A DNA stretch of 63,703 bases from a virus. Shown here piece by piece: positions 1-63,703 of the stretch. The stretch is taken from the IMG/VR virus record IMGVR_UViG_3300045988_161557. The stretch is one strand, 5' to 3'. Position 1 is the stretch's first letter. Every line of letters starts with the position of its first letter. Under the pieces are notes generated by a model. The model had not been told where the DNA came from and searched no databases. It saw only the letters and a program-made list of their open reading frames with translations. Both the position numbers and the translations under genes were made by a program.

Positions 1-240
1 CGCGTACATCTCAGAGCAGGAAAACGAGCCGCACAAAGCCGTAAAACGAACCTTCCGCGTACATCTCAGAGCAGGAAAACGAGCCGCACAAAGCCGTAAA
101 ACGAACCTTCCGCGTACATCACAGAGCGGTAAAACGAACTCGCGCAAAGTCGCAAAACGAGCCATCAGCGTACATCCAGGAGCAGGAAAACGAGCCACCC
201 GCATATATCTCAGATTAGGAAAACGAGCCTTCCGCGTACA
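1..240. repeat. Phased iteron-like tandem repeat array
   Basis: nt 1-55 = 56-110 exactly (CGCGTACATCTCAGAGCAGGAAAACGAGCCGCACAAAGCCGTAAAACGAACCTTC). Degenerate units start near 111, 167, 200 and 233. The AAAACGA core starts at 21, 43, 76, 98, 131, 154, 187 and 220 (spacings 22, 33, 22, 33, 23, 33, 33 bp). Confidence 0.9.
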
Positions 241-7800: not shown

Positions 7801-10800
7801 GAAATAAGCCACGCTCTTCCAGAACGTATCAAGCGCCTGCCGTATCTTCTGCATCGCGCTCATTGCTTCTGCCTTGTCGAAGATGCTTCCGTTCTTGGTA
7901 GCCTCCTCCATCTCTTTACGCAAGCGTTCCGCGCCTTTCCGTCCTGAGTAGGTAGCCAGCACTTCATCCGCTATCTCGTCATCAGTCGTCAGTTCGGGGT
8001 AACGCTTCTTCACTTCCTCCCATACAGCGGTGTCCTTCATAAGGCCAACCACATTCGCCCACTCTTTAGCGTTTGACTGCCTCAGAGCGCTTGCCCACAG
8101 GTGCGCATACTCATGCACAGGCGTTTCGCTGTTGGCTATCTTCGGGTCAATGTATATCTTCCCGTCAACGGTAAAACCATAAGCCTCGCCATCGGCTGTG
8201 CGGAAGAAGCGTACATGGTCAGTTATCTTGGCATCCTTCCCGTTGAAGATGACGTAGTTCTTAGCCTCGTCCAACACACGCTGTCCTTCTTCCTCGTTTG
8301 TTATGACATCCATGCCATTCTCCCGCATTCTGTCTATCAAGGCATCACGCAAGATAGCCTCTTCCTTCCTGGCGGGAACAGCACCTTTTCCGCGCTGGTA
8401 ACGCTCATCAGCCTTGCGAGAGTTGAAACGCTTTGATGGTGGGATAATATTGCCATTGTCATCGCGTGTTACTAAGTCGTTCAGCTTTCTGTTGTTCTTC
8501 ACATTCTTATACCTGTAGTTCTTGCCGTTGTCGTAGCCCCACTCGTTCACGTCGTTGCTGTCCCACCAAAGGTCACTAGCTGGCACCTCGTCTTCAATGA
8601 TACGGTACTTACCCTCCAGACGGTTGTCACCATGCAACTCAGCATACCTCTTCGAAGGAGTCACCCAGTCACCATTGCGCAACTTGCCCTCCTTTACAGT
8701 TGTAGGCACGGCGCGATACACCTTTATCTTCGCATCCTTCTTGCCGTTCCGTATGTCATCAATGGCTGTCTGTATTGCCTTGCCGCTCTCCTTGCTTGTT
8801 GGCAAGCCTTGCGAGTATTTATCAGGATGCGCAAAGATGTCTTCTGGTTGGTTGCTGTAGCCTGCTGCCATATCCTCCACATTGAGGTCTGGCGAGTCTT
8901 CACCAACGGCATTGCGTCTCGCTTCGTCAGTCTCATAATTAGGCTTTGAAGGTGCGCCCCAAGCACCTACACCCTGGTAGTCGCTCTCGGCATCACCATA
9001 CCCCTTACGTCTTGCAGCCTCGTCAAGCATCTCACGGGCAGTAGCCTCGTCACCTTTCGCCAAGGCATCCGCATAGCGTTCGTCTATCTCGTCTCCTGTG
9101 AGTAAAGACAACTCTTCCAAGTGCTGCTGCCTTTTGGTTTCTTCCTCTTCGGCTCTCTTGCGTGCAGCCTCCATCATGCCACGCTCTATCTCCGCTTGCT
9201 TTCTGCGCTCCTCAATAAGCACGTCCACGTCGCCATACTTCGCCTTAATCGCTTGCTCTACAGGCTCAAACAGACGCTTGTTAGCAAGAAGACCGCTCAC
9301 TCCATCGCGCTCCATTAACGCCTTCTTCTCCGCTATATGCTCACGCAGATATAGAGCCTTTAGGTCATGAAGAGCCATTGCAGCCGCAGCCGAATTCCTT
9401 TCTCTCATACCCTCTGCATAGCGGGAAAGCCACATACCATCCAAGCCATGCTCCGCTGCCATCGACTCAACATCTACGTTATCCGTCTTCTGCAGACGCA
9501 CAGATGTCGCCTCACGCTCACCCTTAACAAGCTTCGCACCAGCACTTTTCTCACCATTCCCTTGCTCAGACGAAACCTTTTCTTTATCTTTGCCGTCAGA
9601 AACAGTGTTTTGCGGAGTAGCTGTGCCATTCCGCTTGCCGCCTTCAGCGGTTCCTACAGTGTCTGTCGTATTGTCGGAGACACTGTTTTTCTTTTCAAAG
9701 GCAGTAAGCAGCCAATTCTTTTTCTCACTATCCCATGTTAGGCGTACAGATGCTTGATGCGTCTCACTTTCCAGTTGCACACGATTGTATGTGCGCTTGA
9801 CAACAACCATAGCATCAAGTATCTCTTGCAGATTGCCAAGAACTTCTGGATGGTATTTGGCGAGTTTAGCAAGACCAAAGCCGTCGCTTTTGGCGGTTCC
9901 TTCTTTTCCCCATACCAAATCAATGTCACCAATGTCTTTATGGTGCAATGCGTCCACAGCTTCGCCCTCTTTCTTTTCGAGGAGGAAAGCAATAGCTTCT
10001 TGTGGTTTGCCTTTGAACTGGGTGTATATAGTTCCAAATGCACCTGTCTTTGGAGACTCTGCACTTTCTGACTTCACATTTTTATACTCGTTGAAAGCCT
10101 TTGTCTTGCGCTTGCTTGACTCAATCCACTTCTCGAAGTCTTCAAGGTTCACAGCGGACACATCAATTCTGCGGCCATTCTCCCAGCCCTGCTCGTAATT
10201 GGCAAGGTAATCTCCCATAGCCTCGTCAGCATCATTGAAGCCAAGCATAACCTTGTGCTCGTCAAAACTACCGTCAGGGTTGTACTGGTCAATGACGAAC
10301 ACCTTTCGTCCGTCCCAACCGTCGATATCATTGGAGAGGAACACGTCAATATGGTCTCCGTCAACGCCTACTGTACCACGAATGTAGCCGTAAGTGTTGT
10401 TCATCTTGCTTTCCCACTCCTTGCCGTTGGCATCAGTGCCCCTACGCACGCTGCCCTGCGGCTGCTCGATGGTGATGTCGAACGTACCAACTTGTACATG
10501 TCCCTTCTTATAGTTGCCTGCTTCCTTCTGCGCCTCTGTCGGTTCTGTATTCACTTCGGCTGAAGCTGTGGCTATCTGTTCAGAAAGTAACGCTCCTCCC
10601 TTGTTTTCAGAAGGTTTTTCGCGTTTCGCGCGCTCCTCTTCTGCCAGTCTCTCAGCCTCCGCAAATATATTGCCTTTTTCTTGCTCGGTTGCAAGCTTTG
10701 TACTACCTTTGCCGTCAGAAGACAAGTCGTGTTGAGGAGTGGAAAGGCTTTCCACCTTATCCTTCGAGGATAACATAACGAGTTCGCCGCCGTTCTTCTC

Positions 10801-13800
10801 GACTTGTTGGCCATCCGTAAGGTTGGAAAGGCCACCAACCTCTTCTGAATTTTCAGAAGGCAGTATGAGGACTTGGCCGCCCTCACGGATGGCTTGTTTT
10901 TTTATAAGCCCCAAATTCTTATCGTTCACATAATGCCAGTGGATAATCTCAACAGCATTCTTGCTTGGGTTTATTTCCAGTAGTACTATGCGGTTATGCC
11001 CTTTTTCGTCTTTCGTGTTTATTACTACCCAATTATAGGGGCGTTTAGCCTTTTGGTTCTGCCCATACAAGTCAGCATTGTATAAAGCGGAAAACAAAAT
11101 CCCACGACTTTGGCTAGGGGATAAGTCCTTGTGGCGTTCTGCATTTCTCTCAAAGATATTCTTCTTGATGATGACAGGTTTACCGTCCGTGCCAAGGGCA
11201 TTGCCAACATTCTCAGGAACCTGCGGCAACTCCACATTGCGGGTAGGGTGTGAAAAGTCTTCGTCTGTTATATCGTCAATAGACTCTACTTTTTCCAGCT
11301 TTAATGTACCGTCAGCGTTCAATGGGTTGCCCTGACTATCATGCTCATTGGTGGCAGAATATTTTTCGCGTTTCGCTACTCTTTCTTCCGACGGTATATC
11401 ACCTTGGAGTTCTGGTGTTCCTCCCACATTCGCTGGTCTTCCTCCTGCTGCTTCTGCTCCAGCATTCTCTTGTGTAGCCTCTGGTTTACCAGCGCCTTCA
11501 TCGCCAGCATCTTCTTCTGCTCTGGTGTCTGCGCGCTTTTCACCTCCTCGGGTGTCATCAGTCCGTTCGCCAAGTTGTACTTGACGGCTTCCACCATCGC
11601 TCTGCTCTTCTCCTGCGGAGTCATTTCCTTCTGTTCCATTGTTCTGTTGTTTAGCTTGTTCTTCTCTTCTGCGCAAGTCCTCCTCTATCTCGTCTGCGTA
11701 TAGCTTGGTGAACTCTTGCTCGTCAAAGTTACTATATCTTCTCAACATCTCGGGCATCTCCTGCTCGGAATATGCGATATAGTCCTCATAAGACATGCCA
11801 TAGCGCTCGTTATAGTACGCATCGCGCTGCGCGTTGTACTGCGCCACAAACTCCTGCTCCTGGTCAGTCTTATATCGTCCCGACTTGAGGAAGTCTATAA
11901 TGGCATCCCTTGCGGCAGCGCTGTCACCGCCGAAGAAGCGGCCGCTGTTCTCTGTATTGTCGAGGTCAACCAACTTTTCGGACAGGCGTTCTATGCTGTC
12001 TCCCTCCTTCGCGATACGTCCTGCCCACTGCTTCTGCTCCAGCGTCCCGCCTCCAGTCTCTTTTCTGAAGGACTCAGGTGCTATCTTGGCACTTGCCATG
12101 AAGTCGGCGATGAACTCCTGCTGTGTGGGTATGCCGTTCTCGGCCTTTCGCTGTGCTCGGTAGGCCGCGCGTGCGTTATCATCGTTCAGCTCGCCCTCCC
12201 AGCCTTGCGCGTCTGCGGGTGTGGTTATTCTCTCCACTTCGGCTTTTACATCGTTCCAGTACTGAGCCTTGTGGCGGGCATCTTCCAGTTCGTCTTCCCA
12301 CTTCTTCTTGCTGGCAAGGTACTTGGCCTTGTCAGTGCCTACCTTGGGCTTCCGATTCTCCAGCTTCTTCACGTTCTTGTCGGCTTCCGCTATCTGTGCC
12401 TCTATGAACTCGCCCACCTCCTTATCGTCAAGTGTGCCGTCATACAGGTCTTCCACGGTAGCCTGCACAGGAGCTTTGTAGTACTGGGGTACTCCGTTCT
12501 TATCCAGCGGTATCTTCGGAGTGGCCTTGTTCTCCACAGTGGGAGCGGCCTCACTCTCCACAGCGGGAGCGGCTTCACCCTCCACTACAGCGGATGACCC
12601 GCCAGTCTGCCCCTCCTCGTCTGGTGCGTCCTTGCTATCCACGTAGTCATGCAGGAGCTGTTTCGTCTTGGCATCCCACTCTGACTCATCCACGATGTCT
12701 ATCCACTCATGGATTGTCTCGGCATCGTTCTCGTCACGCGCCCAGCCGTCAACCATTGCACGTGCGCTTCTTCCTTCCTCGGTAGCGTCCAACTGCGCGG
12801 CCACCTCGCTACGTGTAGGCACGGCTGTATCTGCAGGAGCGTCCTCCTCTGTAGCGGGAGTGCCCTCTATGACCACAGAAGAACCGTCAGTCGGTGTCTC
12901 CTCTGTTGCACCGCCCTCCGTAGTCTCCTCCACCGCGCTGCGCTCGGCATCGCGCTGCGCTGCGTCCTCCTGCTCATACACGTAGTCCTGGGAAGACAGA
13001 AGCTCGTCAGCGGTGGCCTTGAAGGGTGTGCCGCTTATGGCTTCCTCCTCGCCTGCCTCGTTCATGCGTGTGGGCAGGAGATAGAAGTTACCCTCCTCAT
13101 CCTCCTTCACGATGAGGAAGCGCTGTGTCTCGTTATCCTCGTCCTCGCTCTTGCGCATGCTGATGCTGACCGTCTCACCCACGGCAGGCTGCACGGTCTT
13201 GTTATGGTGGTTGAGGTTCCAGCGTACTTCATCCTTCGCCTGCTCCCACAGCTGCTGGCGTCTGACTTCTGTCTCCTCGCTGGCATTGACGGCTGTCAGT
13301 TCTCCCGCCTCATCACGCGGTATCATGCGCAGAGCGCCTGTCTCCATATCGCGCACCACCAGCGTACTGCCTTCGTCAGACAGGGAAGAAGGCACAACAT
13401 ACTCGTTCTCTCCAAGGTTAGATCCGCGCCAGGCGTTGCCATCCTCGTCCGACATGAGGCTTAACGTGTTGCCGTACTTGTCGGCTTCCTCGTCCACGCG
13501 GTCATGCGCCCCTGCCATGATACCGCTCAGTCGGACGCTGGACAGATACACATCCGTAGCGGCCTTCTTCTGCTCCCAGTTCAGTGTCTTCAGTATCTCC
13601 TGGAACCGCGGCAAGTCCATATCCCGCACGGCCATCACGAAGTCCTTGCCCAGCATTTCGGTAGCGGTTGCCGCTGCATTGTCAAACTCTACAGCGGCAT
13701 TGTGGCGCTCATCAGCGGCCATCTCATGCCCTGCGTCAAACGCGCTCTTATAGCCTCGCTGTACACGGTTTGCACTTATCTCCCCAGACATATCGCTTGT

Positions 13801-16248
13801 GTTTACGCTCTGGTAGGACACCAGCTTACCAGCGTAGTCCATCAGCGCGCGCGCCTGCTTGCTGTCCTTCAGCCCGCCATCCTTGAGGACGGACATATAC
13901 ACATCGCATATATCCTTGATGCTCTCTGCCTCGCGCATGCGGGTCATAAGAGGTACAGCAGTCTCCTCGCCCAACGACTTGCGCAGGGCATCGGCAGAGG
14001 TGTTCAGCTGGCGCTTGACGGTGTAGGAGTTGTAGCGCTTCTGGCCTTGCTCGATAGCGGCCATGGGCATAATCATCGCTGCCACAGATAAGAAGGTCTC
14101 CAAGTTTGTCTCAGCGTTGAACATGGATCCTTTCCAGTCGTTCACGGCTTTGTTGTAGTCCTCCTCGCTCTTGTAGTCCTCGCGCTTTGGCTCGAAGACA
14201 CCTCCCGTCAGGTTCATGTCGCCTGTGAAAACCGCGTTCTCCAGGTTGTTTATCACCTCCTCTGCATACTCCCCGAAGAGGCCGCTTATGTGCGCTTTCT
14301 TGCGGAACTCGGCCAGCAGTGAAGCCTTCTGCTTCGGTGAGGATGCAATGAACCGTTCCACCATGCTGCGTGCCAGGGGCATATCCTTTGCGGCAAGGTT
14401 GGCAAAGTTCTTTATCGGTGAGAAGTACTCACCCACCAGCTCGGACTGGTTCTCGAAGTAGGAAGCCAAGCCCCCCTTGAGGTACGACTTAGCCCCTGTC
14501 TCTCTGTCCTCCACGCGGTCATACACTATGCGTCCGCTGTCATCCACACGGCCTATGAACGTACCCGTCTGCCTCTCGTTGATAGAGGCCATGGTACGCG
14601 GCAGGCCAGTGGTGAGTGTTGTACCCAGTGCCTCCACTCCATCACCTATCACGCGGCCTGCGGTGTTCATCGCGCGCACGCCCCACTTGCCGTATTTGTT
14701 CACAGCGGCTACGGTGAGGGCGCGCTGCATGCTCTGCTCGGCGGCGTTCATGGTAGGCGCGCCAGTCACGTTCTTCATCACCGTCTTGCCCGCTGTCTTC
14801 ATCGCGCCCTTCAGCACTCCCTTCACGCCTCCCTTGGCAGCGTTAGCCGCTACTTGCTTCTCCACAGCAGCACCCAGTCCGTTGAGCGGGTTGAGGTAGA
14901 TGCTGGCGGCAAAGCCCGCAGAGGCAGGCACGCTCTGTCCTACGCGGTAGGACATCGGCACGTGCTCACTGAAGTTAGCGTCCAGCGTACTTGATACGGC
15001 CATCGCGTCCAGAACTCTCTGCTCGGTTGCGGTCAGATGCTCCTCGGGTGTCTTGCCTGCCTCCTCGGCCTTGCGGATTCGCTCCGACTTATCTACAAGC
15101 TCAGCCAGGTTACGGCTGTCGGCCCAGTCGTTGGCACCGAAGTCCCACGTGCGTATATCGCGGGTAGCGTCCCACGCGCCACGTGCCACGTTGAAGGCTG
15201 TGTTGTTGGAGAAGCCCTCGCGCGTAGCCTGCTTGATAGTGTTTTCTGTGTCCTCCAGTGCCTGCTCTGCGGCCTTGGCCTTGCCATACTCGGGGTCTGT
15301 CCACCTACGTATGTAAGAGGTCACGTTGGGGAACTGGCTCTCAGCGAACTCCATAAAGCCCGACTTCTCGCCTCGTCTCTCCTCTATGTCCTCCAGCGCC
15401 TTGGCCACCTCCTCCTTTGCAGCCTCGAGTTGTTCTCTGCCGCCTCCCAGCTCGTACTCGGCCTTCACATCGCGCCCGCGGTATTTCTTCTCTGCTGCGT
15501 CCCGCTGCTGCTGTAGGCGGTCTATGGCCTGCATGATATAGCCTTTGCGTGTCTCACTCGTATGGTCGGTACCCTTAATGCGGTCATACTGCTCCTGCAT
15601 GACGGTCAGCTGCTTGTCTATGCCTGCCAGCTCCTCCTGCCGCTTGCGGTCTATCTCCTCCTGCACGTGAGCCAGCTTACGCGCCTGTTCCTGCTGCTTG
15701 TCCAGAGCGGCCTGCTCACGCTCGGCAGAAGCCTGTGAAGTGTACTCGTTGCCGCTCTGTGTTATGTAGGTGCGCTCCTGTTTGCCTGTCTTGGCATTGA
15801 ACGTAGGAGCGGTGGCCACAGTACGACCCGACTTGCCAAGTCCAAGTTCTATCTTCGGCACGTTAAGCCCGAAGTTGGCCTTCTGCCACTCCTGCGCGTT
15901 CTCTGCCTGGTGCAGCACATCGCGCCCGCGTGCTACCGCCAGAGCGTTGTTCTTAGCCGCTCTTGCGTAGTCATCCGCGTTGGGCTGTGCCGCTCTGCCC
16001 TGCTCTTCGGCTGGATCCTCCTGTTTGGCTGGCTTCACGGCATGCAAGCCAAGGTTGGCAGCAAACTCCTCGTAGGTATTGCTCTCTACGGCGTTGTCCT
16101 GCTTCAGCGCTGTAAAGAGCGCGAGCCTGTTCTTGTAGCCTTCCTCACCAGGTGCAAGCATCTTAGCTCGGAAGTTCTCTCTACCGCTTGTTACCGCGCC
16201 ATCACGTTCCAGCGCATCGTATAGTATATCTAACTTATCCTGTGCCAT
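1900..16248 (-). CDS. Giant polyvalent protein (4,782 aa), multi-domain, probably virion-delivered anti-defence or ejection protein
   Basis: Single uninterrupted 14,349-nt ORF. Motifs read from the translation: family-I PPase-like TYGYIRGTVGVDGDHIDV (about nt 10342-10400); zincin HEYAH (8101-8115) and HEAVAH (5830-5847); a YRAV..GDWVTPS..NEWGY module (8525-8725); small His-rich nuclease-like or MuF_C-like modules (ERNAERH ~10880-11260, IGDIDLVWG..GFGLAKL ~9680-10040, NRHLNKH ~7280-7560); a hydrophobic helix FAFAFGAAPVTAAAVALPLF (3000-3105). Long acidic or coiled-coil linkers separate the modules. Confidence 0.8.
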   Translation of the reverse strand: MAQDKLDILYDALERDGAVTSGRENFRAKMLAPGEEGYKNRLALFTALKQDNAVESNTYEEFAANLGLHAVKPAKQEDPAEEQGRAAQPNADDYARAAKNNALAVARGRDVLHQAENAQEWQKANFGLNVPKIELGLGKSGRTVATAPTFNAKTGKQERTYITQSGNEYTSQASAEREQAALDKQQEQARKLAHVQEEIDRKRQEELAGIDKQLTVMQEQYDRIKGTDHTSETRKGYIMQAIDRLQQQRDAAEKKYRGRDVKAEYELGGGREQLEAAKEEVAKALEDIEERRGEKSGFMEFAESQFPNVTSYIRRWTDPEYGKAKAAEQALEDTENTIKQATREGFSNNTAFNVARGAWDATRDIRTWDFGANDWADSRNLAELVDKSERIRKAEEAGKTPEEHLTATEQRVLDAMAVSSTLDANFSEHVPMSYRVGQSVPASAGFAASIYLNPLNGLGAAVEKQVAANAAKGGVKGVLKGAMKTAGKTVMKNVTGAPTMNAAEQSMQRALTVAAVNKYGKWGVRAMNTAGRVIGDGVEALGTTLTTGLPRTMASINERQTGTFIGRVDDSGRIVYDRVEDRETGAKSYLKGGLASYFENQSELVGEYFSPIKNFANLAAKDMPLARSMVERFIASSPKQKASLLAEFRKKAHISGLFGEYAEEVINNLENAVFTGDMNLTGGVFEPKREDYKSEEDYNKAVNDWKGSMFNAETNLETFLSVAAMIMPMAAIEQGQKRYNSYTVKRQLNTSADALRKSLGEETAVPLMTRMREAESIKDICDVYMSVLKDGGLKDSKQARALMDYAGKLVSYQSVNTSDMSGEISANRVQRGYKSAFDAGHEMAADERHNAAVEFDNAAATATEMLGKDFVMAVRDMDLPRFQEILKTLNWEQKKAATDVYLSSVRLSGIMAGAHDRVDEEADKYGNTLSLMSDEDGNAWRGSNLGENEYVVPSSLSDEGSTLVVRDMETGALRMIPRDEAGELTAVNASEETEVRRQQLWEQAKDEVRWNLNHHNKTVQPAVGETVSISMRKSEDEDNETQRFLIVKEDEEGNFYLLPTRMNEAGEEEAISGTPFKATADELLSSQDYVYEQEDAAQRDAERSAVEETTEGGATEETPTDGSSVVIEGTPATEEDAPADTAVPTRSEVAAQLDATEEGRSARAMVDGWARDENDAETIHEWIDIVDESEWDAKTKQLLHDYVDSKDAPDEEGQTGGSSAVVEGEAAPAVESEAAPTVENKATPKIPLDKNGVPQYYKAPVQATVEDLYDGTLDDKEVGEFIEAQIAEADKNVKKLENRKPKVGTDKAKYLASKKKWEDELEDARHKAQYWNDVKAEVERITTPADAQGWEGELNDDNARAAYRAQRKAENGIPTQQEFIADFMASAKIAPESFRKETGGGTLEQKQWAGRIAKEGDSIERLSEKLVDLDNTENSGRFFGGDSAAARDAIIDFLKSGRYKTDQEQEFVAQYNAQRDAYYNERYGMSYEDYIAYSEQEMPEMLRRYSNFDEQEFTKLYADEIEEDLRRREEQAKQQNNGTEGNDSAGEEQSDGGSRQVQLGERTDDTRGGEKRADTRAEEDAGDEGAGKPEATQENAGAEAAGGRPANVGGTPELQGDIPSEERVAKREKYSATNEHDSQGNPLNADGTLKLEKVESIDDITDEDFSHPTRNVELPQVPENVGNALGTDGKPVIIKKNIFERNAERHKDLSPSQSRGILFSALYNADLYGQNQKAKRPYNWVVINTKDEKGHNRIVLLEINPSKNAVEIIHWHYVNDKNLGLIKKQAIREGGQVLILPSENSEEVGGLSNLTDGQQVEKNGGELVMLSSKDKVESLSTPQHDLSSDGKGSTKLATEQEKGNIFAEAERLAEEERAKREKPSENKGGALLSEQIATASAEVNTEPTEAQKEAGNYKKGHVQVGTFDITIEQPQGSVRRGTDANGKEWESKMNNTYGYIRGTVGVDGDHIDVFLSNDIDGWDGRKVFVIDQYNPDGSFDEHKVMLGFNDADEAMGDYLANYEQGWENGRRIDVSAVNLEDFEKWIESSKRKTKAFNEYKNVKSESAESPKTGAFGTIYTQFKGKPQEAIAFLLEKKEGEAVDALHHKDIGDIDLVWGKEGTAKSDGFGLAKLAKYHPEVLGNLQEILDAMVVVKRTYNRVQLESETHQASVRLTWDSEKKNWLLTAFEKKNSVSDNTTDTVGTAEGGKRNGTATPQNTVSDGKDKEKVSSEQGNGEKSAGAKLVKGEREATSVRLQKTDNVDVESMAAEHGLDGMWLSRYAEGMRERNSAAAAMALHDLKALYLREHIAEKKALMERDGVSGLLANKRLFEPVEQAIKAKYGDVDVLIEERRKQAEIERGMMEAARKRAEEEETKRQQHLEELSLLTGDEIDERYADALAKGDEATAREMLDEAARRKGYGDAESDYQGVGAWGAPSKPNYETDEARRNAVGEDSPDLNVEDMAAGYSNQPEDIFAHPDKYSQGLPTSKESGKAIQTAIDDIRNGKKDAKIKVYRAVPTTVKEGKLRNGDWVTPSKRYAELHGDNRLEGKYRIIEDEVPASDLWWDSNDVNEWGYDNGKNYRYKNVKNNRKLNDLVTRDDNGNIIPPSKRFNSRKADERYQRGKGAVPARKEEAILRDALIDRMRENGMDVITNEEEGQRVLDEAKNYVIFNGKDAKITDHVRFFRTADGEAYGFTVDGKIYIDPKIANSETPVHEYAHLWASALRQSNAKEWANVVGLMKDTAVWEEVKKRYPELTTDDEIADEVLATYSGRKGAERLRKEMEEATKNGSIFDKAEAMSAMQKIRQALDTFWKSVAYFLHIHYTTTEEVADRVMKDLLDGVDPRMMNDGESVESIRYQHVESKEYESPERANERFNDELDAFKNKSHKGLLHLGRPGAILRAAGIDVESITLSPTVLNRHLNKHAITTDDLKGLAKSIQSPILVYKHGKNSPNIVVVTELDVKGGKLSASFELDSNGEVVKVSNISSIHNKDAEKELLRLYKMGEKDFRNALKWVEKEKMLNWLAPSSYKPSGMQTNEAPFDIAKVIQDFENPKVSDEKVSEDDLYRVVDDKETIERLDAEPKITAYRAMQVIDGKLYSPMAAKVDGELTDSNPYGAWTEAEETLLDFTPEQKAAMEALDKSNEPGNVELIKGKLRYNKQSKNGKGTLQFHLVKGDGSSLWAAYNPYIHSSMSMLNDQFTSAYKRPNIVVVEVEIPESELTSGYRAQNAKNTVGMTEWKAGPVAGQLPGDMARQVMLSRWSKVKRIVPYSEVADQVAATLSTAEEKTGQKVQLPIESFHPELRKELEKRGFEFQHGKYTEETAKRKAWDDLTDEEKQQAYKGAAYMDDAAIEALNSEYRGEWLKREGEGQATDEEVSLANDPVSKMIGKSRYSAGQQVEYAENMRERMTTHAQELAEKLHLINVEIVADGSGFTGKRQKAKGFYNKTTGKITVVIGNHTSMADVEKTILHEAVAHNGLRQLFGEHFDQFLDNVYESCDYKIRQKIDALMEEKGYDQRTATEEYLASLAEDINYETTDPTFWTAIKEAFLDMLHTLGFDYAGPVLTDNELRYILWRSYKNLEEPGSFRSILGTAEDLKMQETLGVGQYETEGKESAAAEDLFREDDISRALNNDSEGAGWSRETMQRAWDDVMSKASFLAKEGYFDYLASVDEFQKLVERATGEKVSDMQNAYKAMLQLSSRNANEMKLFDSAFARPLQRAVYRLIGAVKDFKKGKGLELSWYLISKHGIERNRDMAIRAAMKEKAKESFAEQIHEATAELKEERTQLLTELTRIAAGETSPLGTEAAIKARVKQIEAEIDSIKKHPNKHGLKTEAEFYEDELDNWYRTASFIKEYAEENGWTWRETQEELTRRAADFGADVTEDYSGLSALVEEEEDFTEAAYRRVENYENTHYTDDLWEAIRAMSGYSLEKQRSSGLTTKKYVDDQLRRYDFFVPLRGWADPTAEEMYDYLDGQRSELGNPVKTAKGRKSEADNPLGGLLSVAYRSIASGNKNMALQHFYNLVSAHNTNGLAVIDSMWVENRGTEDAPDWVLATPELTDPMTGGREMSAEEVQAELDRFNADMREKAALGMAIQMKKGTPLPPYRVTQQHARAHQIRLSVGGTNRVITIVGNPRVAMALNGLLNPENSGWPILRKLNNFMAGAFTNYNVSFGGANLARDTAHSNLRAFIGESPAYWWALTKKQNLILGNVANWARMVGMLRKYEAGKPMTGYHERMFKELMDGGGATGYTMIRNQKESTQFMVDMVRDLKNIKRRKLSPMRMFEFFSFLNEAAELVNRFVAYETSREMGRTRERSIDDAKEATLNFNRKGAGAKSLTQRDGAKYRLSNALNYYSQYGRSFIVFFNAHVQGTYQLYRLVKEHPAKFAFAFGAAPVTAAAVALPLFNNLLLPAIYSAVGGDGDDDWGDYYYELSDWERQHNICLRLPKGHGWLKIPLTPELGAMFQVGDVTGASFAGKRDMQASDFAGIMELVAPNNVDFTDAGTAISSLVPSSLQWASHIAVNRDFKGSRLRNDNMFSRYQPEYLKATRSTSATITAMSRALNKVGGGNDERSADNVLDFAPGYVQEMLTGIAGGWASTALAVSDALAAPYLEGGGSEKDYWKGAKGLFDRGGVPVLSRFWISGSGERNAARAKGEYMRTVKPFMGATESEFSLIKRIPRPAALDVRAKEEKLEAAKKSHDLFAIAEAEKSLEAAKANFEEAKKTQRQKLDALQGSERFKAYRDMRGITRYIDYMLRLYKDNDLPDNVVDSLQEANRRLLEVEK

Positions 16249-32303: not shown

Positions 32304-33167
32304 TTAGAATGGTACAGGGTCTTCAAAATCCGTATGGTCTGCGTTCCATGTGAGGTTCATCATCTCGTTATGGACAAACTCATACAACTTATCTCCAGGC
32401 AGAGTGCTCGGCTTGGTAGTGCCGTACAGATGGTTGCAGCGTGCGCTTATGGTACGCGACAGCTGTAATGCTTGGGGAGTCTCCATTTCCACACCAAGCT
32501 GTGCTCTCAGTTCCACAAGCTTCTGACGGAACTCAGCGGCTGTCATGGTAGGCGCAGTAGGCTGTTGTGCAGACGGCGATACAGGCTCTGGCTGTGGCAC
32601 GGGCTTTGGCTGTGGTGCAGGCTCTGACTGTGGCTTGCTATCGGTCTCCATCTCCGCACCAAGCTGTGCTCTCAGTTCCACAAGCTTCTGATAGAACTCA
32701 GCGGCTGTCATGGTAGTCGCAGTAGGCTGTTGCGCAGGCTGCGATACAGGCTCTGGCTGTGGCACGGGCTGCGGCTCGGGTGTAGGCTCTGACTGTGGCT
32801 TGCTATCGGTCTCCTCTCCTTCAGCAAAGGGCAGGTCAGACTGCTCCTGCTTGGTCTGCGGGGCTTCACCTTCTCCCTCGCTATCAGCGGGGGACTCGGC
32901 AGACAGGGCTGGCTCGGCCTCCTTCTTCTCCGTCTTAGTGCTCTTACGTGGCTTGCGTGCCTTGGGCTGAACCACTAAGGGCTTCTCTTCTACGGGTGCA
33001 ACAGCTTCCGCGCTCACCTCTTCAAGAGCATCGCCCTCAGACGCTGGCTCGCTCACCACGTCGCTACTAAGATGGTTCAACAGACAGCGCGACATGGCTG
33101 TCATCGCGCCTTCAAGCATGCGGCAGTCCAATTCCTGCCCAGTGCTAAATTCGAGTGTAATCTTCAT
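32304..33167 (-). CDS. Pro/Gln-rich protein with an internal 55-aa tandem duplication and an SSB-tip-like C-terminus
   Basis: ETDSKPQSEP..TMTAAEF.QKLVELRAQLG occurs twice. The protein ends ...DFEDPVPF. Confidence 0.65.
   Translation of the reverse strand: MKITLEFSTGQELDCRMLEGAMTAMSRCLLNHLSSDVVSEPASEGDALEEVSAEAVAPVEEKPLVVQPKARKPRKSTKTEKKEAEPALSAESPADSEGEGEAPQTKQEQSDLPFAEGEETDSKPQSEPTPEPQPVPQPEPVSQPAQQPTATTMTAAEFYQKLVELRAQLGAEMETDSKPQSEPAPQPKPVPQPEPVSPSAQQPTAPTMTAAEFRQKLVELRAQLGVEMETPQALQLSRTISARCNHLYGTTKPSTLPGDKLYEFVHNEMMNLTWNADHTDFEDPVPF
32481..32810. repeat. 2 x 165-bp tandem duplication inside a CDS
   Basis: Unit starts CTCCAT(T/C)TCC at 32481 and 32646. Near-identical DNA encodes the duplicated 55-aa segment. 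Confidence 0.85.
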
Positions 33168-46641: not shown

Positions 46642-47061
46642 TTATAGCAGGTCTTCCCAGTCAACGGGTATTCCACGGGCTACCATCTTGGCATACCAGC
46701 AACGCATCACCTCTCCGTCTCCTGCATCCGCATCATCAAGAATATCTCTGATAATCTTAGCCAGATGCACCTCGTCAGAGATGCTGCTGCCAAGGTAGTC
46801 GCTCCTGCACATGGTAGCGACATACACCATATCGTATCCCACATCATTCTCTATCTGCACTCCTGTACGGCTCAGGAGGTCATCCACCTGTTCACGTGTC
46901 AGTGCAGTAGTACGCTCCAAGGATCCAGACTCCGTGCGTCTGTACATGTGCCTTGCGGCAAACTCACAAGCCTTACGGTTGAAGTGCCACCCGTAGTTGC
47001 GCAAGTACGAACGCATGTCGTCGGGCATCCTGTCATAAGTATCAAGGCTTGTCCGTCTCAT
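46642..47061 (-). CDS. Hypothetical protein
   Basis: 139-aa ORF, the last gene of the minus-strand late operon. Confidence 0.6.
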   Translation of the reverse strand: MRRTSLDTYDRMPDDMRSYLRNYGWHFNRKACEFAARHMYRRTESGSLERTTALTREQVDDLLSRTGVQIENDVGYDMVYVATMCRSDYLGSSISDEVHLAKIIRDILDDADAGDGEVMRCWYAKMVARGIPVDWEDLL

Positions 47062-48923: not shown

Positions 48924-49180
48924 ACTACGTACAATATTATAAGCCCAACCGTAGCCGCAGCACCGCCCATAGCGGTGGCCAGCAAGTCCTTCCACTCGAA
49001 GCGCTCGTCAAGCAGCTCTTTGACCACTCCTGCCACTATAGATAGACCGAAACCTGTCGCGATGGATGCCGCCTGCATCGCGCCTGCCATGCAGGCAACG
49101 AGGTAGGCCATAACGGCCACCAGCGCTCCTGCAAGGAAGTGCGTCACCTTGTCGAGTCCCCACTTCTCAACAGCATTCAT
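48920..49180 (-). CDS. Small three-pass membrane protein
   Basis: 86 aa. HFLAGALVAVMAYLVACMAGA, IATGFGLSIVAGVV, GGAAATVGLIILYVV. Confidence 0.6.
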   Translation of the reverse strand: MNAVEKWGLDKVTHFLAGALVAVMAYLVACMAGAMQAASIATGFGLSIVAGVVKELLDERFEWKDLLATAMGGAAATVGLIILYVV

Positions 49181-49451
49181 CGTGCGCCTCCTTTCCTGCT
49201 GGATCCTGCCACATCATCTCGTCATCCTCCACCTCGGTAGTGGCGATGATGTTCGCTTCCGCCTCAAGCGTGTTGTACTCCTCACGCGCTGCCTCGTAGG
49301 CTGTGTATTCCTCTGGGTACTCCTCTCTGAAGGTGAGCCCCATCTTGATGCACTTGGCAGCATGCGCGTCACTCTCGGCCATGGTGGCCTGCAAGGCCAT
49401 CTTGCGCTCTGCTATGCGTTGCAGGGCGCTTTGCTTCTCCTCTCTTGTCAT
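49167..49451 (-). CDS. Hypothetical acidic helical protein
   Basis: 94-aa ORF that overlaps the RT 3' end by 83 nt in another frame. Confidence 0.45.
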   Translation of the reverse strand: MTREEKQSALQRIAERKMALQATMAESDAHAAKCIKMGLTFREEYPEEYTAYEAAREEYNTLEAEANIIATTEVEDDEMMWQDPAGKEAHDECC

Positions 49452-50664
49452 GCTTTCTATTTTTATGCTTTAATCTTAAATGATATCTGCGCTTCAGCCT
49501 CTCGTTCAGCCCGTATCCGTCATTGGCAACGAGACACATCCTACGCTTGTCAAGATGTATGTATCTGTTCCATCTGTCGGACAGGTTGTCCAGCGCTGTC
49601 ATAGCGATGTGGTGTCCGTTACGTGTCTTGCAGATGCCCAGATAGGAATTGACACAGGCAAGCAGCGCGCTGAGACTCCTTTCGCAGGGTGCTGCATTGA
49701 ACTTGGCAATGCATTGCATGAATGAGCGAACCGTCCTCTGCGACACATACACCCGTTGCATCTTGACGGTTGTACCGCAGAACTTCACACCCTTGCTGTA
49801 GTGCTGACAGGAGAACTTGTGTGGATGTAGCGTGCATCCAAGTTCAGCATACCGCCTGCGTAGCTCTGGCATGATGTAGGCAAGGAACGCTTCCTTGTTG
49901 TCCGTGACAGCAAAGTTGTCGTCCATATAGCGCACGTGCAGTATGCCGCAGTCCTGCTCCAGCCAGCGGTCTATATCAGCCACGTAGAGGCTCATCGCGT
50001 CCTGCCACACAAGCCTGCCGATGCTACCTCCTATGCCTGCAGGCTTGTTGAACAGGCTTTTCTCTGGCTTGATGGACAGGCGTTCTTCATAGGTGCTCCG
50101 TATCTCACAGTGTTCGGTCGGATAGCTGAAGATACTCCGCTCTATCAGATACCTCAGAAGCTCCTTGTCTTCACCCTGGTATTCCTTATCAAGTATGTCA
50201 AGGAACTGGTCATATGCGGTATCTTGACGGGCATTTGGAAAGTAGCCCTCCAAGTCCCAGGTGATGCACCAGGCATCGCGCGTGAAGCCGCACGTCTTGT
50301 CGTAGATGTCTTCCGCTATCTGGTTTATTGCTGCATTGAGCCCCTTTCCTATGCGGTTGTTGAAGGTTCTGTCGGTAAGCCTGCGTTCGATATGCGGACG
50401 CATGTCCTCGGCTATGTAGTGGTCGCAGATGCGCTGTCCCATATCGCACGCGAAGACTTCACGCGCTTTTGGACGGGTAGCCACAAAGGTGTAGGCAGTC
50501 GGTTGCAGGGTACGGTCGTTCATATCCAGCGCAAGGCGCAACAGGTTTCGCTGCCAGTGGAGCTCAAACTCCACGCAGTCCGCTGAGTTGCGCTTGTGCT
50601 TGCGCGTTATCAGATAAATAGGGTACAAGCCCCTGAAGCTGACCGTATCATTCATCTTTTGCAT
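49369..50664 (-). CDS. DGR reverse transcriptase
   Basis: RT motifs ITWDLEGYFPNA (A), GIGGSIGRLVWQDAMSLY (B) and VRYMDDNFAV (C, YMDD). Its ATG lies 12 nt after the TR end. Confidence 0.85.
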   Translation of the reverse strand: MQKMNDTVSFRGLYPIYLITRKHKRNSADCVEFELHWQRNLLRLALDMNDRTLQPTAYTFVATRPKAREVFACDMGQRICDHYIAEDMRPHIERRLTDRTFNNRIGKGLNAAINQIAEDIYDKTCGFTRDAWCITWDLEGYFPNARQDTAYDQFLDILDKEYQGEDKELLRYLIERSIFSYPTEHCEIRSTYEERLSIKPEKSLFNKPAGIGGSIGRLVWQDAMSLYVADIDRWLEQDCGILHVRYMDDNFAVTDNKEAFLAYIMPELRRRYAELGCTLHPHKFSCQHYSKGVKFCGTTVKMQRVYVSQRTVRSFMQCIAKFNAAPCERSLSALLACVNSYLGICKTRNGHHIAMTALDNLSDRWNRYIHLDKRRMCLVANDGYGLNERLKRRYHLRLKHKNRKHDKRGEAKRPATHSRAQDGLAGHHGRE

Positions 50665-50676
50665 TCATTATCGGTT

Positions 50677-50799
50677 CGAGAGCGGGGAAGCCACAAGCCA
50701 GGTGTTGTACATGGTCGTGGCGTTCAGGCAGCCGTTCGTGCCGTTGCAATTCCAAGCGTTGTTGGGATTGTAGCGCGCACACGTCCACTGGTTAGAACC
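50677..50799 (-). repeat. DGR template repeat (TR)
   Basis: Non-coding copy of VR. The conceptual translation has 9 Asn (AAY) codons (..YNPNNAWNCNGTNGCLNATTMYNTW..). Track ORF 50668-50853 is this repeat. Confidence 0.9.
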
Positions 50800-50893
50800 C
50801 ATTGTGCCCAATTCCTTGCCTGTCGGTGTAAAAGACACCCTGGGCACCTCCAATAATTATAGCTGCTGGCACGCCATACCTGTATCGCAGGGT

Positions 50894-51313
50894 TTAGTCT
50901 GGCGTACTCTTGCTGCGGAGCGCGCTCTGCCTCCATTTTGAGATGTCTTCGTCTATCTCGCCTACAATCTGGAATATGCCCAGATACATCTTGTCGGTCG
51001 CTGATGGCAACTCGGCATTCGTCTCGGTGAGTTCCTTAGCCTTCGGGCATCTCAATACACCTTCATGGTTTATCCCTTCCAATTCAACCTTGAGCACGGC
51101 AAAATCGGCAATAAGCTTTCGGTAATAGTAGGCGCGCTCGTCCTGGAACTCGTAAGCCAGTGCGAAGTCGCGCAGGCACTCGTTGCAGTACTCCAACGCA
51201 GGAGTGCCGTACACGATGCGGTCTTTCTTCATCAGGAAGTACTGCATCTTCTTCAGCCTGTGCCTCAGTCGGCACAGCCTTATGTAAATGCTTGCGTTAT
51301 GTATTCTTGCCAT
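50894..51313 (-). CDS. avd: DGR accessory variability determinant (Avd-like)
   Basis: Sits between VR and TR as in canonical DGRs; about 139 aa, helical and basic. Start taken at the ATG at 51313 (MARIHNA), which leaves the VR-proximal hairpin intergenic. The track ORF extends to a TTG at 51370. Confidence 0.6.
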   Translation of the reverse strand: MARIHNASIYIRLCRLRHRLKKMQYFLMKKDRIVYGTPALEYCNECLRDFALAYEFQDERAYYYRKLIADFAVLKVELEGINHEGVLRCPKAKELTETNAELPSATDKMYLGIFQIVGEIDEDISKWRQSALRSKSTPD

Positions 51314-51339
51314 GCTCTGTGTGTTATGTGTCTTGTCAA

Positions 51340-51368
51340 GCGCGGGCATGGCCTTGGCCTGCCCGCGC
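51340..51368 (-). other. GC-rich hairpin just downstream of VR (candidate DGR target-recognition hairpin)
   Basis: GCGCGGGCA - 11 nt - TGCCCGCGC (9-bp stem), 6-34 nt after the target-gene stop (51374) and about 27 nt after the VR end. Confidence 0.6.
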
Positions 51369-51373
51369 AAGAG

Positions 51374-52615
51374 TTAATTTTCAAGAATGTGGAGCGAGAG
51401 CGGGGAAGCCACAAGCCCGGCGCTGCACAAGGCCGTGGCGTACAGGCAGCCGTGCGTGCCGCGGCAATACCAAGCGTGGCGGGGATCGTAGCGCGCACAC
51501 GTCCACTGGTTAGAACCGTTACTTATAGCCTTGCCTCCTGCAGCGACAATAGTTCGATTAAGCACGTCAGGCGTTCCCGTTCCTTGCGTTATATCTCTCA
51601 TAAGCTCTACAAGTTCCTTGGGTGCGGGCAGATGCCACAAACCTACTTGCAGGCAGGAGGTAGAGAAGCTGGTGCACCATCCACTTGCGGGGCACATGTA
51701 CTTCGGTTCGGCCACCTTGCGCGATGTGTAGGTGAAGGACGAGAGCAACTTGCTCATCTCCCTGCCGTCATACATCATAATGCCGTAGTCGGTGTCAGTA
51801 ATAGAGACACAGCTGCGCATGAATCGCAGCCAACCCTCCTCACCCTCGCCATACACGCCACGAAGCGGTTTACAGAAGTCCCCTGGGTTCTTGGTGGAAG
51901 TTCCGAGCCAAGTATGAAGGTTGATCGGCCATTCCTGCTTGATGCTCGTCTGTTCAGCCGTGCGCCCGCCTTGCTCGGGCGAAGCGCCGTTGTCGTTACG
52001 GTAGTAGGCCAACGAACGGTGCCAGGAGCAGATGCCGCCTAATTGCGTCGCCTGTCCGCTCTTACGCCTTAGACGTGTGCATTGCTTTAACTCGGGCATG
52101 CTGTTTGTCTTTGTGATACCTGATTTGGCAGTGAAGTTGTAGTTCTGCCATACGACGAACGCATAATGCACTCTGACGCGCCCGTCAGCGGTAAGGTCGG
52201 CATACCAGTCCTGATCTGTAAAGTCGGTATCCGCTTCAAAAGCGGCATTGAGCGCGCTGATGAACTCCTCTACGGTACTTGCCGTATAAGTGATTGTCTT
52301 CTCCACACTCCTATCCCAGTTTGCCTTGGTGGGTATGGCCAGCACTATGGTGTGCTCCGCGCCGTCCAGCGTATAGCCGCTCAGATAGTACCACACACGG
52401 TCGCAGAATGCGATGTTACCCGAATTGTTCAGCCCAACAATAGTGACCTTTTTGCCCTCTCGATGTGATACAACGCCCTGCACCTCCCACTCGCTCTTGT
52501 CCAGCTCTGAGGTTACGAGCGTGTCGGCCTTGATGTAAAACAGCTTCTTGTCGGAGAGCCGCCCTACACATGCGTCCCCGCGCTCGGGTATCTTAACGAA
52601 TACATTATTTGCCAT
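51374..52615 (-). CDS. DGR target protein with a C-terminal C-type-lectin-fold (DUF1566-like) variable tip; probable receptor-binding or tail-fibre protein
   Basis: The VR occupies the last ~40 codons (NQWTCARYDPRHAWYCRGTHGCLYATALCSAGLVASPLS). WHLPAPKELVELM upstream is typical of DUF1566/CLec DGR targets. It lies in the tail-fibre neighbourhood. Confidence 0.85.
   Translation of the reverse strand: MANNVFVKIPERGDACVGRLSDKKLFYIKADTLVTSELDKSEWEVQGVVSHREGKKVTIVGLNNSGNIAFCDRVWYYLSGYTLDGAEHTIVLAIPTKANWDRSVEKTITYTASTVEEFISALNAAFEADTDFTDQDWYADLTADGRVRVHYAFVVWQNYNFTAKSGITKTNSMPELKQCTRLRRKSGQATQLGGICSWHRSLAYYRNDNGASPEQGGRTAEQTSIKQEWPINLHTWLGTSTKNPGDFCKPLRGVYGEGEEGWLRFMRSCVSITDTDYGIMMYDGREMSKLLSSFTYTSRKVAEPKYMCPASGWCTSFSTSCLQVGLWHLPAPKELVELMRDITQGTGTPDVLNRTIVAAGGKAISNGSNQWTCARYDPRHAWYCRGTHGCLYATALCSAGLVASPLSLHILEN
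51395..51517 (-). repeat. DGR variable repeat (VR)
   Basis: 108/123 identical to TR. The invariant GC-rich 3' end (coding sense GGCTTGTGGCTTCCCCGCTCTCG) is the IMH candidate. Confidence 0.9.
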
Positions 52616-54372: not shown

Positions 54373-54751
54373 TCTTCCTTCGCAAGACGAGCACAACAGC
54401 CACGCCTGCCACAAGCATCGCCCAGCCGCCCCAGTCCTGCTTGGTACGCTGCCACCGCGTAAGCGGACGCTCCACGGGGTATGGCTTTGGGATGCTGTCG
54501 GTCTTATTGATATAGAGGGTGTCGCATGTCTTATGCCGTTCCACACGCACATGCCATCTGTCCATCCACACCGTATCACGCCCCTCACGCACGTGTACGC
54601 TGTCATACATCCAAACGCTATCCACACGCTCCTTGTATTGTATAAGCGTGTCTGATCGTGTCTGCATGATGGGAACGTACTCTGTGCGTACAGAGCGGCA
54701 GGAGCACAGACAGAGAGCGCAGAGGAACGCTATCAGACAGCCCCTGCCCAT
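54368..54751 (-). CDS. Unimolecular spanin (u-spanin)-like lipoprotein with a C-terminal TM anchor
   Basis: Start taken at MGRGCLIAFLCALCLCSC (lipobox-like L-C-S-C). C-terminal TM GGWAMLVAGVAVVLVL-RRKI. It overlaps the endolysin 3' end. Confidence 0.6.
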   Translation of the reverse strand: MGRGCLIAFLCALCLCSCRSVRTEYVPIMQTRSDTLIQYKERVDSVWMYDSVHVREGRDTVWMDRWHVRVERHKTCDTLYINKTDSIPKPYPVERPLTRWQRTKQDWGGWAMLVAGVAVVLVLRRKI

Positions 54752-55170
54752 CGTGCTGCCTCCCATGCTCTGCGTCTCACAAGGCCAGGCAGCTTCTTGT
54801 TGCCCGCCTTCACCCATCTGCCGAACTCATGGTAAATGGTTGGATTGGCAGGATTGGCAAGTATCTTCTTGGCCATCGTGCTGCGCTTGAAATTACCAAT
54901 GCCCACGTTATAGGCAAAGCTTACTATGGCATCCCACTGGTTATCGGTCAACTTCACATCGCCTAAGAATCTGTCCAGTGCCTCCTCCTCAAGTTCGATG
55001 AACTCCTCAAGGTCTTTGTCAGCCTGCTCTTGCGTGATGGTCATACCCATCTCCACCCCGCGAGTCCTCCCATAGCCTATGGTTGGAATACCAACGGCAT
55101 CGCGGTACGCCTTAAGCTTGCACCCCTCAAAGGTCTTCATCTTCTCAAGTGCTTCTCTTGTAAACCTCAT
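54733..55170 (-). CDS. Endolysin, glycoside hydrolase family 24 lysozyme
   Basis: KTFEGCKLKAYRDAVGIPTIGYGRT carries the E..D..T catalytic triad context of T4/lambda-type lysozymes. Confidence 0.9.
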   Translation of the reverse strand: MRFTREALEKMKTFEGCKLKAYRDAVGIPTIGYGRTRGVEMGMTITQEQADKDLEEFIELEEEALDRFLGDVKLTDNQWDAIVSFAYNVGIGNFKRSTMAKKILANPANPTIYHEFGRWVKAGNKKLPGLVRRRAWEAARWAGAV

Positions 55171-63612: not shown

Positions 63613-63630
63613 ATAAGCCCGCCTTACCAA

Positions 63631-63703
63631 ACCGCAAAACGAGCCACACGCGTACATCTCAGAGCAGGAAAACGAGCCGCACAAAGCCGTAAAACGAACC
63701 TTC
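63631..63703. repeat. Iteron array, left part, running into the terminal redundancy
   Basis: AAAACGA cores at 63636, 63669 and 63691 (spacings 33 and 22). nt 63649-63703 are identical to 1-55. Confidence 0.9.

Follow-up and report, generated by a model that had tools for sequence, protein, structure and literature searches.

The 63,703-nt viral sequence recorded in IMG/VR as IMGVR_UViG_3300045988_161557, whose whole length is here called the window, carries on its minus strand what is very probably a functional diversity-generating retroelement (DGR) with the architecture known from Bordetella phage BPP-1, lodged in a gut phage of ~64 kb. No natural system other than DGRs is known to direct hypermutation to a selected protein surface, and phage-borne DGRs are frequent in the gut. 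The locus comprises a target gene ending in a variable repeat (VR), a small accessory gene, a template repeat (TR) and the gene of a reverse transcriptase (RT); this minus-strand order, called canonical in the initial annotation of the sequence, is the same as that annotated in BPP-1 and in Bacteroides phage F2. The coordinates of these features, of a candidate hairpin and of a pair of short direct repeats are collected in Table 1.

Table 1. Features of the DGR locus, in the order in which they are read on the minus strand; positions are those of the window.
Feature	Position	Strand	Description
Target gene	51374-52615	-	413 aa; VR in putative C-terminal Lcl_C/DUF1566-like lectin-fold domain
VR, variable repeat	51395-51517	-	Codons 367-407 of the 413-aa target open reading frame (ORF)
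Diversified stretch inside VR	51421-51511	-	
GC-rich 3' end of VR, GGCTTGTGGCTTCCCCGCTCTCG	51395-51417	-	Candidate initiation of mutagenic homing (IMH) site; identical to TR 50677-50699
GC-rich inverted repeat	51340-51368	-	Candidate DGR target hairpin/cruciform; 26 nt after VR
12-nt imperfect direct repeat, copy 1, AGCATGGCAAGA	51305-51316	-	Accessory-gene start
Accessory gene, probable very divergent Avd	50894-51313	-	139 aa, pI 8.6, predicted four-helix bundle
TR, template repeat	50677-50799	-	123 nt, 27 adenines, nine AAY codons
DGR-type RT gene	49369-50664	-	431 aa, YMDD; RVT_1, phrog_1423 and Brt match
12-nt imperfect direct repeat, copy 2, AGCATGACAAGA	49443-49454	-	Start of downstream 94-aa gene; right-hand cassette junction

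Re-alignment of TR and VR reproduced the coordinates of both repeats, their length of 123 bp and the 15 mismatches, 14 of them at TR adenines, in a gapless and collinear alignment; with adenine occupying 27 of the 123 TR positions, the binomial probability of at least 14 such mismatches among 15 is 7.2e-9. The likeness ends sharply on either side of the 123 nt, and the pair is unique of its type within the window. The VR reads in frame with the target ORF and lies, as had been placed earlier, in its last ~40 codons. Eight of the nine AAY codons are altered in the window VR (N->D,R,H,Y,R,H,Y,S, a list identical to that first drawn up), the remaining residue changes from TR to VR being T->A, M->L, Y->C, T->A and W->G; the last of these is the product of the sole non-adenine mismatch, the T->G change at TR 50700 / VR 51418, which was likewise confirmed. 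The count of 23 adenines in the variable zone needed qualification, as 22 lie between the first and the last mismatch and 23 is reached only when position 50771 is counted. Taken over the population, diversification extends further than in the window, from codon 369 (AAC, unaltered here) to codon 399. In no TR codon can substitution of adenine yield a stop, and the theoretical repertoire from 18 re-randomised codons is ~7.6e15 proteins, none of them with stops. The search for additional remote VRs that had been suggested found none in the window, on both strands, in a scan that used the non-adenine TR positions only.

The initial annotation had also proposed looking for VR polymorphism tied to TR adenines, and such polymorphism was found in related loci, from assemblies rather than reads. 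We compared 12 related cassette-bearing loci, two of which (L069 and L070) are identical in sequence, leaving 11 independent TR/VR pairs. In these, 132 of the 140 TR/VR mismatches fall at adenines (p ~ 5e-76), that is, 94% of the mismatches on 22% of the positions. The window TR is identical to the TR of 7 of the 12 related loci, every distinct VR differs, and between genomes of 92-97% identity TR is constant.

The same pattern is seen at the level of the target protein, whose close homologues number hundreds. Among 88 homologues of 413 aa, the nine AAY codons, codon 369 included, are exactly those at which entropy reaches ~3 bits; it is intermediate at the ACG, ACC, TAC, ATG and CAG codons and near zero elsewhere, and the residues observed at each codon are nearly all within reach of adenine substitution. 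In 85 proteins encoded with a cassette, codons containing adenine depart from the TR-coded residue in 62% of the sequences, compared with 5% at VR codons without adenine and 4.3% outside VR. Moreover, ten protein pairs without a single difference over the 361 positions outside VR differ on average at 12.5 of the 41 VR positions, and VR divergence plateaus at ~15 independently of the divergence outside VR. Hypervariation is thus confined to adenine-containing codons, with a constant TR. The element had been described as apparently active; the constancy of TR, the adenine-site variation of VR and the saturated VR divergence between otherwise identical proteins bear this out, and, as judged from the assembled sequences, the DGR appears demonstrably active in its lineage.

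Seven relatives that are syntenic to window 49167-52615 (L002, L007-L009 and L013-L015) have no cassette. In them the target gene abuts the 94-aa downstream gene, the accessory gene, TR, RT and hairpin all being missing, and the 3' homing segment has decayed. Their target proteins terminate in QQTLTFD, as opposed to LHILEN in those with the cassette, and the C-terminal tails divide the protein set into 87 sequences with and 33 without it. One of these relatives, L009, has an unrelated C-terminal sequence in place of the VR region. The VR-like segments found without a cassette differ from TR at 44-63% of the adenine sites, versus 7-33% of the others, and were therefore once DGR-templated. Their divergence is unsaturated, since pairs with 4, 21 and 25 differences outside VR have 3, 7 and 3 differences within it. 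These are fossil VRs, and they serve as a natural negative control for the saturation seen where the cassette is present.

Two copies of an imperfect 12-nt direct repeat (consensus AGCATG[G/A]CAAGA) lie at the ends of the cassette. Origin of the cassette-less state by simple deletion between these copies was considered and rejected, as it leaves both the differing C-terminal tail and the missing hairpin unexplained; the state could have arisen either by loss or by module exchange. Diversification of the cassette-less relatives in trans, by a TR located elsewhere, was also considered and dropped, because the pairwise analysis argues against ongoing diversification. A 16-mer scan of IMG/VR for TR elsewhere, which did not read whole genomes, returned one copy in a cassette-less contig and otherwise chance hits.

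The RT had been annotated as a YMDD enzyme of the DGR type, and its sequence matches agree in assigning it to that type. It matched RVT_1 in Pfam (E 3.6e-10) and phrog_1423 in PHROGs (5e-43), its single match among PDB sequences was Brt of phage BPP-1 (8ub7, E 1.2e-8), and tblastn recovered DGR RTs of Bacteroides phages F1/F2/F4 and BS-TP1 and of crAss-like, Pseudomonas, Burkholderia and BPP-1 phages. In a motif alignment with reference DGR RTs, YMDD and motif A are intact, and the residues aligned to the Brt selectivity positions R74 and I181 are conserved. The window RT is 99% identical to those of relatives. Lacking its own stop codon, the RT ORF enters the next gene (49167-49451) by 83 nt in another frame, its ~28 final codons overlapping this neighbour; in one relative, L012, the RT is annotated 11 residues shorter.

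The accessory gene was found to start at 51313 (139 aa) and not at a TTG further upstream. Homologues of its product are few, just 11 among 5.8 billion proteins; the protein itself gave nothing against Pfam even at E<=10 and no usable NCBIfam, PHROG or PDB sequence match, while one of its homologues (41% identical) reaches the Pfam family bAvd with an E of 0.11. The AlphaFold2 (AF2) model of the protein has four helices, with a predicted local distance difference test score (pLDDT) of 74.8 and a predicted template-modelling score (pTM) of 0.70. A Foldseek search with this model placed 2rld and 2gsc among the best matches, at template-modelling (TM) scores of 0.56-0.76 and with every E>0.1; we take both to be PF05635-family bundles, and Avd is a relative of that family. 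Alignment with hhalign against four known Avds gave a probability of 33% (E 4.5e-4, 110 columns end to end), against the Avd of F2 alone a probability of 16%, and against that of BPP-1 alone no similarity. In size, charge and position, the protein has the features of a basic four-helix bundle of ~130 aa encoded between target and TR, the fold being predicted. The earlier label of Avd-like thus holds as regards position, size, the predicted four-helix bundle and the 33% profile match, and fails as regards family matches; model and profile are suggestive of homology, and the protein may well be a very divergent Avd.

The target protein consists of a beta-rich N-terminal part, a helical middle and a putative C-terminal lectin-fold domain that contains the VR. 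A WxLPxxxEL motif had been noticed in it, and is present as WHLPAPKEL at residues 327-335. The target itself had zero Pfam, NCBIfam, PHROG or PDB sequence matches, BLASTP showed no similarity to Mtd of BPP-1, and neither megablast of the locus nor tblastn of the target against GenBank phages produced a match. The target family forms 168 clusters at 50% identity, and Pfam PF07603, Lcl_C (formerly DUF1566), is matched by 7 of 89 family representatives with a best E of 8.7e-14; Pfam searches for tail-fibre domains in longer members of the family were uninformative. An AF2 model of the target built from a diverse alignment (pLDDT 95.5, pTM 0.90) gave in Foldseek a weak match to 8q4e, the C-terminal domain of Legionella Lcl (E 0.063, probability 0.90, TM(target) 0.47), and matches to phage DUF1566 proteins (E 8.3e-5 to 2e-2, TM(target) 0.12-0.47); the DUF1566 protein of the crAss-like phage cr10_1 matches with an E of 1.5e-3 and a TM(target) of 0.42. 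The proposed DUF1566 or C-type lectin (CLec) nature of the target therefore stands on the Lcl_C matches of its relatives and on weak fold matches, the window protein itself being without a Pfam match, and assignment to the Lcl_C/DUF1566 lectin class is supported indirectly, by family and model.

A tail or receptor-binding role of the target is plausible, and we infer that it is a virion receptor-binding protein through which the phage could switch receptors. A rather doubtful alternative is that this diversified lectin has a role outside the virion, in host-surface or defence-related binding or in superinfection exclusion. In its favour, non-structural phage DGR targets are documented (PMC8008677), and such roles have been proposed for the DGR targets of some Quimby-like phages. 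The initial annotation had placed the target among tail-fibre-like genes, for which the neighbouring genes offer no support: upstream lie three unannotated ORFs (one of them coiled-coil) and the lysis genes, these neighbours gave no informative family matches and a single weak match by tblastn, neither the target nor the three upstream neighbours match a structural-protein family, and the gene sits just past the lysis genes (endolysin 54733-55170) with no identified tail gene adjoining. A place in the virion is nevertheless suggested by Foldseek matches of the target model, over local stretches only, to phage tail-fibre, Peptidase_S74, tail-tubular, sheath and connector proteins (E 5e-4 to ~6e-2), and by the upstream 298-aa coiled-coil protein, which weakly resembles the large protein beside the cr10_1 DGR and also weakly matches a 'virion structural protein' PHROG. 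The locus lies, in addition, between a putative capsid gene (no family match) and the portal gene, and tail proteins are the known targets of cultured-phage DGRs of such architecture.

The 23-nt 3' end that VR has in common with TR is kept in the VR of 10 of the 13 cassette-bearing loci and in the TR of 13 of 13, the exceptions being a T103->G change in the VR of L001 and of L069/L070; directly past it the flanks of TR and VR are wholly divergent. The inverted repeat that follows VR would form a 9-bp stem with a 3-bp inner stem (DNA fold -16 kcal/mol, z = -4.5), and in L001/L006 it shows a compensatory change of a stem pair from C-G to T-A. Its distance of 26 nt from VR falls inside the range of 4-34 bp given for the target hairpins of phage DGRs (PMC3240598). 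A second role, as target-gene terminator, is possible.

By analogy with DGRs such as that of BPP-1, the TR region would be transcribed, and a cDNA carrying random bases opposite the template adenines would be made from it by the RT, in which the small helical accessory protein would probably assist. This cDNA would then displace the 3'-terminal VR of the target gene; the GC-rich 3' end common to both repeats would steer it there, probably with assistance from the hairpin, and 18 codons would as a result be re-randomised in the putative C-terminal Lcl_C/DUF1566-type lectin domain of the 413-aa protein.

Several observations speak against this account or limit it. cDNA synthesis and homing are proposed here by analogy. 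The VR of one protein, P0008, recurs on 8 contigs from several assemblies, and turnover is therefore not instantaneous. The Pfam models bAvd (PF22296) and 23S_rRNA_IVP fail on the accessory protein, whereas bAvd matches the Avd of BPP-1 and of phage F2 at ~1e-36 (F2: 5e-36). Motif 4 of the RT reads IGRLVWQDAMS in place of the usual IGxLxSQxxAN; the [ILV]GxxxSQ signature is absent from the window RT, which has W for S and then DAMS, not LFAN, while SQ is present in four of five aligned reference DGR RTs and TQ stands in that of BS-TP1. This deviation is a variant and no disqualifier, because adenine-specific mutagenesis is evident. TR and VR are identical over the entire 3' 23 nt, with no IMH/IMH* difference inside the repeat, and any discrimination between them must therefore sit in the flanks or in the hairpin. 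The hairpin, lastly, has the inner loop CAAG in the window and CTTG in the relatives, unlike the GRNA loop of 4 nt known from other phage DGRs (PMC3240598); its centre (51349-51359), the 11 nt GGCCAAGGCCA, reads exactly as the reverse-complemented form of TGGCCTTGGCC, found in 12 of 12 other loci, and this flip of the palindrome occurs in this genome only.

This flipped centre raises the question of whether the element family is active and the window copy impaired, its VR being a snapshot that predates the inversion. In BPP-1, swapping the loop for its complement cut homing to near background (PMC3240598), and the single non-adenine VR change (T->G) of the window could be read as post-homing drift. 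We hold impairment to be quite improbable: the RT, its motifs intact, is nearly identical to those of the relatives, the TR is the majority TR, and the stem and the fold energy are unaltered at -16 kcal/mol. Moreover, the loop is not of the GRNA type, so that the loop rules of BPP-1 may not transfer, and the stem-loop, important though it is, was not strictly required in BPP-1 and in a reconstitution in E. coli (PMC12875486). By the same analogy, the flipped centre could make the window copy less efficient within what we read as a functional DGR. That the two repeats are an ordinary duplication, with VR differences owed to point mutation and diversifying selection and no reverse transcription, is effectively refuted: it could draw on the 8 of 140 non-adenine differences and on a small hot spot at codons 400-401, but not account for the concentration of mismatches on adenines, the constancy of TR between genomes, the adjoining DGR-type RT or VR variation that is unsaturated once the cassette is missing.

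The hot spot consists of target codons 400-401 (TGG CTT; window 51413-51418), which lie directly 5' of the homing end and are variable without containing adenine. Of the 85 homologues, 19% have a residue other than the TR-coded one at W400 and 11% at L401, and T->G at TR position 99 recurs independently, in the VR of the window and in both the VR and the TR of L069. A speculative possibility is that these recurrent non-adenine changes mark the cDNA integration junction.

The TR of L069 (positions 4817-4939 of the locus) and L070 (SRR18652153 and SRR18652177), identical in both, has T99->G in addition to 12 A->G/T changes, at the normal site and with the normal TR flanks. All changes lie within positions 48-99 and positions 0-47 are intact; the 3' 75 nt have lost 12 of their 15 adenines and the 5' 48 nt have lost none. 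Compared with the resident VR, this TR also shows differences at 11 non-adenine sites. It looks like the result of conversion by a mutagenised cDNA or by a foreign VR, and suggests imperfect protection of TR. Assembly chimerism is unlikely, as just 23 nt are shared from the last variable site to the TR-specific flank, fewer than a 31-mer, under our assumption that the Logan assemblies were made with k=31. A speculative proposal, which we consider unlikely as it stands, is that TR is incompletely shielded from its own cDNA, because TR and VR have an identical 3' homing end, and that occasional mutagenic homing into TR would erode its adenines, thus providing a route of DGR decay. Such self-erosion could help to explain the loss of avd, TR, RT and hairpin from the sister phages and the fossil VRs that they retain.

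Compared with the DGR of BPP-1 (mtd-avd-TR-brt), the element of the window shares the gene order, a VR placed 3'-terminally in the target, an RT homologous to Brt, adenine-specific differences between TR and VR, an AAY-rich TR, a conserved GC-rich 3' end, an inverted repeat downstream of VR and a small helical accessory gene between target and TR. It differs in that the target has no sequence similarity to Mtd and would belong to the Lcl_C/DUF1566 lectin class, not to the Mtd class, and in that its accessory protein has no detectable match to the Avd of BPP-1 alone. It also has no IMH/IMH* difference in the repeat, a loop other than GRNA and WQ for SQ in motif 4. In addition, the TR stops 12 nt short of the RT start codon, and a spacer of ~140 nt like that of BPP-1 would therefore overlap the RT gene.

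The closest RT matches from cultured phages are those of the DGRs of Bacteroides phages F1/F2/F4 and of other gut Bacteroidales phages, crAss-like cr10_1 and cr50_1 among them, with 31-34% identity. Phage F2 has the same order of target, bAvd, TR and RT, and its target matches Lcl_C; its accessory protein matches Pfam bAvd, unlike that of the window. The DUF1566 protein of cr10_1 structurally matches the C-terminal domain of the modelled window target. Unlike these gut Bacteroidales phage DGRs, the target family of the window has N-terminal two thirds without an annotated relative, and the window phage has another backbone. A further comparison is with LdtA of Legionella, of target class 'd'/CLec2 (DUF1566, DUF823, Fib_succ_major; Wu et al. 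2018, PMC5758913), which has its VR in a C-terminal DUF1566/Lcl_C-type lectin domain, as the window target probably does. The target shares with the LdtA class the W-x-L-P-x-x-x-E-L motif and a W-[ST]-C-x-R...A-W...G..G pattern, and differs from LdtA in being encoded by a phage, in having no lipoprotein signal and in lying below Pfam detection.

The locus brings no new principle, being of a known type of system, and its interest lies in an unusually clean natural data set, in which dozens of near-identical phages differ almost solely at adenine-templated codons. Both the accessory protein and motif 4 of the RT depart widely from their textbook forms. This lineage would be useful for studying the rate of DGR turnover in nature, the sequence needs of Avd and RT, and the decay of DGRs, and the family of the 413-aa target, with its 168 clusters, is a candidate receptor-binding module of Bacteroidales phages.

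The portal gene, the terminase large subunit (TerL) gene and the endolysin gene are identifiable in the window. The nearest TerL proteins, at ~40% identity, are those of Bacteroides phages BF1-TP2, BKO1-TP3 and BS-TP4, and judged by these relatives the host is probably a Bacteroidales bacterium. A scan of species-representative genomes found no prophage copy, and the window contained no tRNA and no Rfam family. A 55-bp tandem array (~3.5 copies, plus 33-bp variants) spans both ends of the window (1-240 and 63621-63703); because both ends share this repeat array, the window is probably a complete circular assembly, and the array is possibly an iteron region related to origin or packaging. The ORF at 1900-16248(-) encodes 4782 aa and takes up 22% of the genome; it matches Pfam MuF_C, LPD13, LPD14, LPD38, InPase and PBECR1, a domain set that makes it a 'large polyvalent protein', and it has a 10.9-kb counterpart in Bacteroides phage BF1-TP2. 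A 165-bp tandem duplication (32479-32819; 2.1 copies, 92% identical) lies within the ORF 32304-33167(-), and the 139-aa product of the ORF 46642-47061(-) matches Pfam DUF7841 (E 4e-21). A few kb downstream of the DGR, relatives have a gene of 184 aa that is annotated with an antitoxin-like domain, SocA_Panacea.

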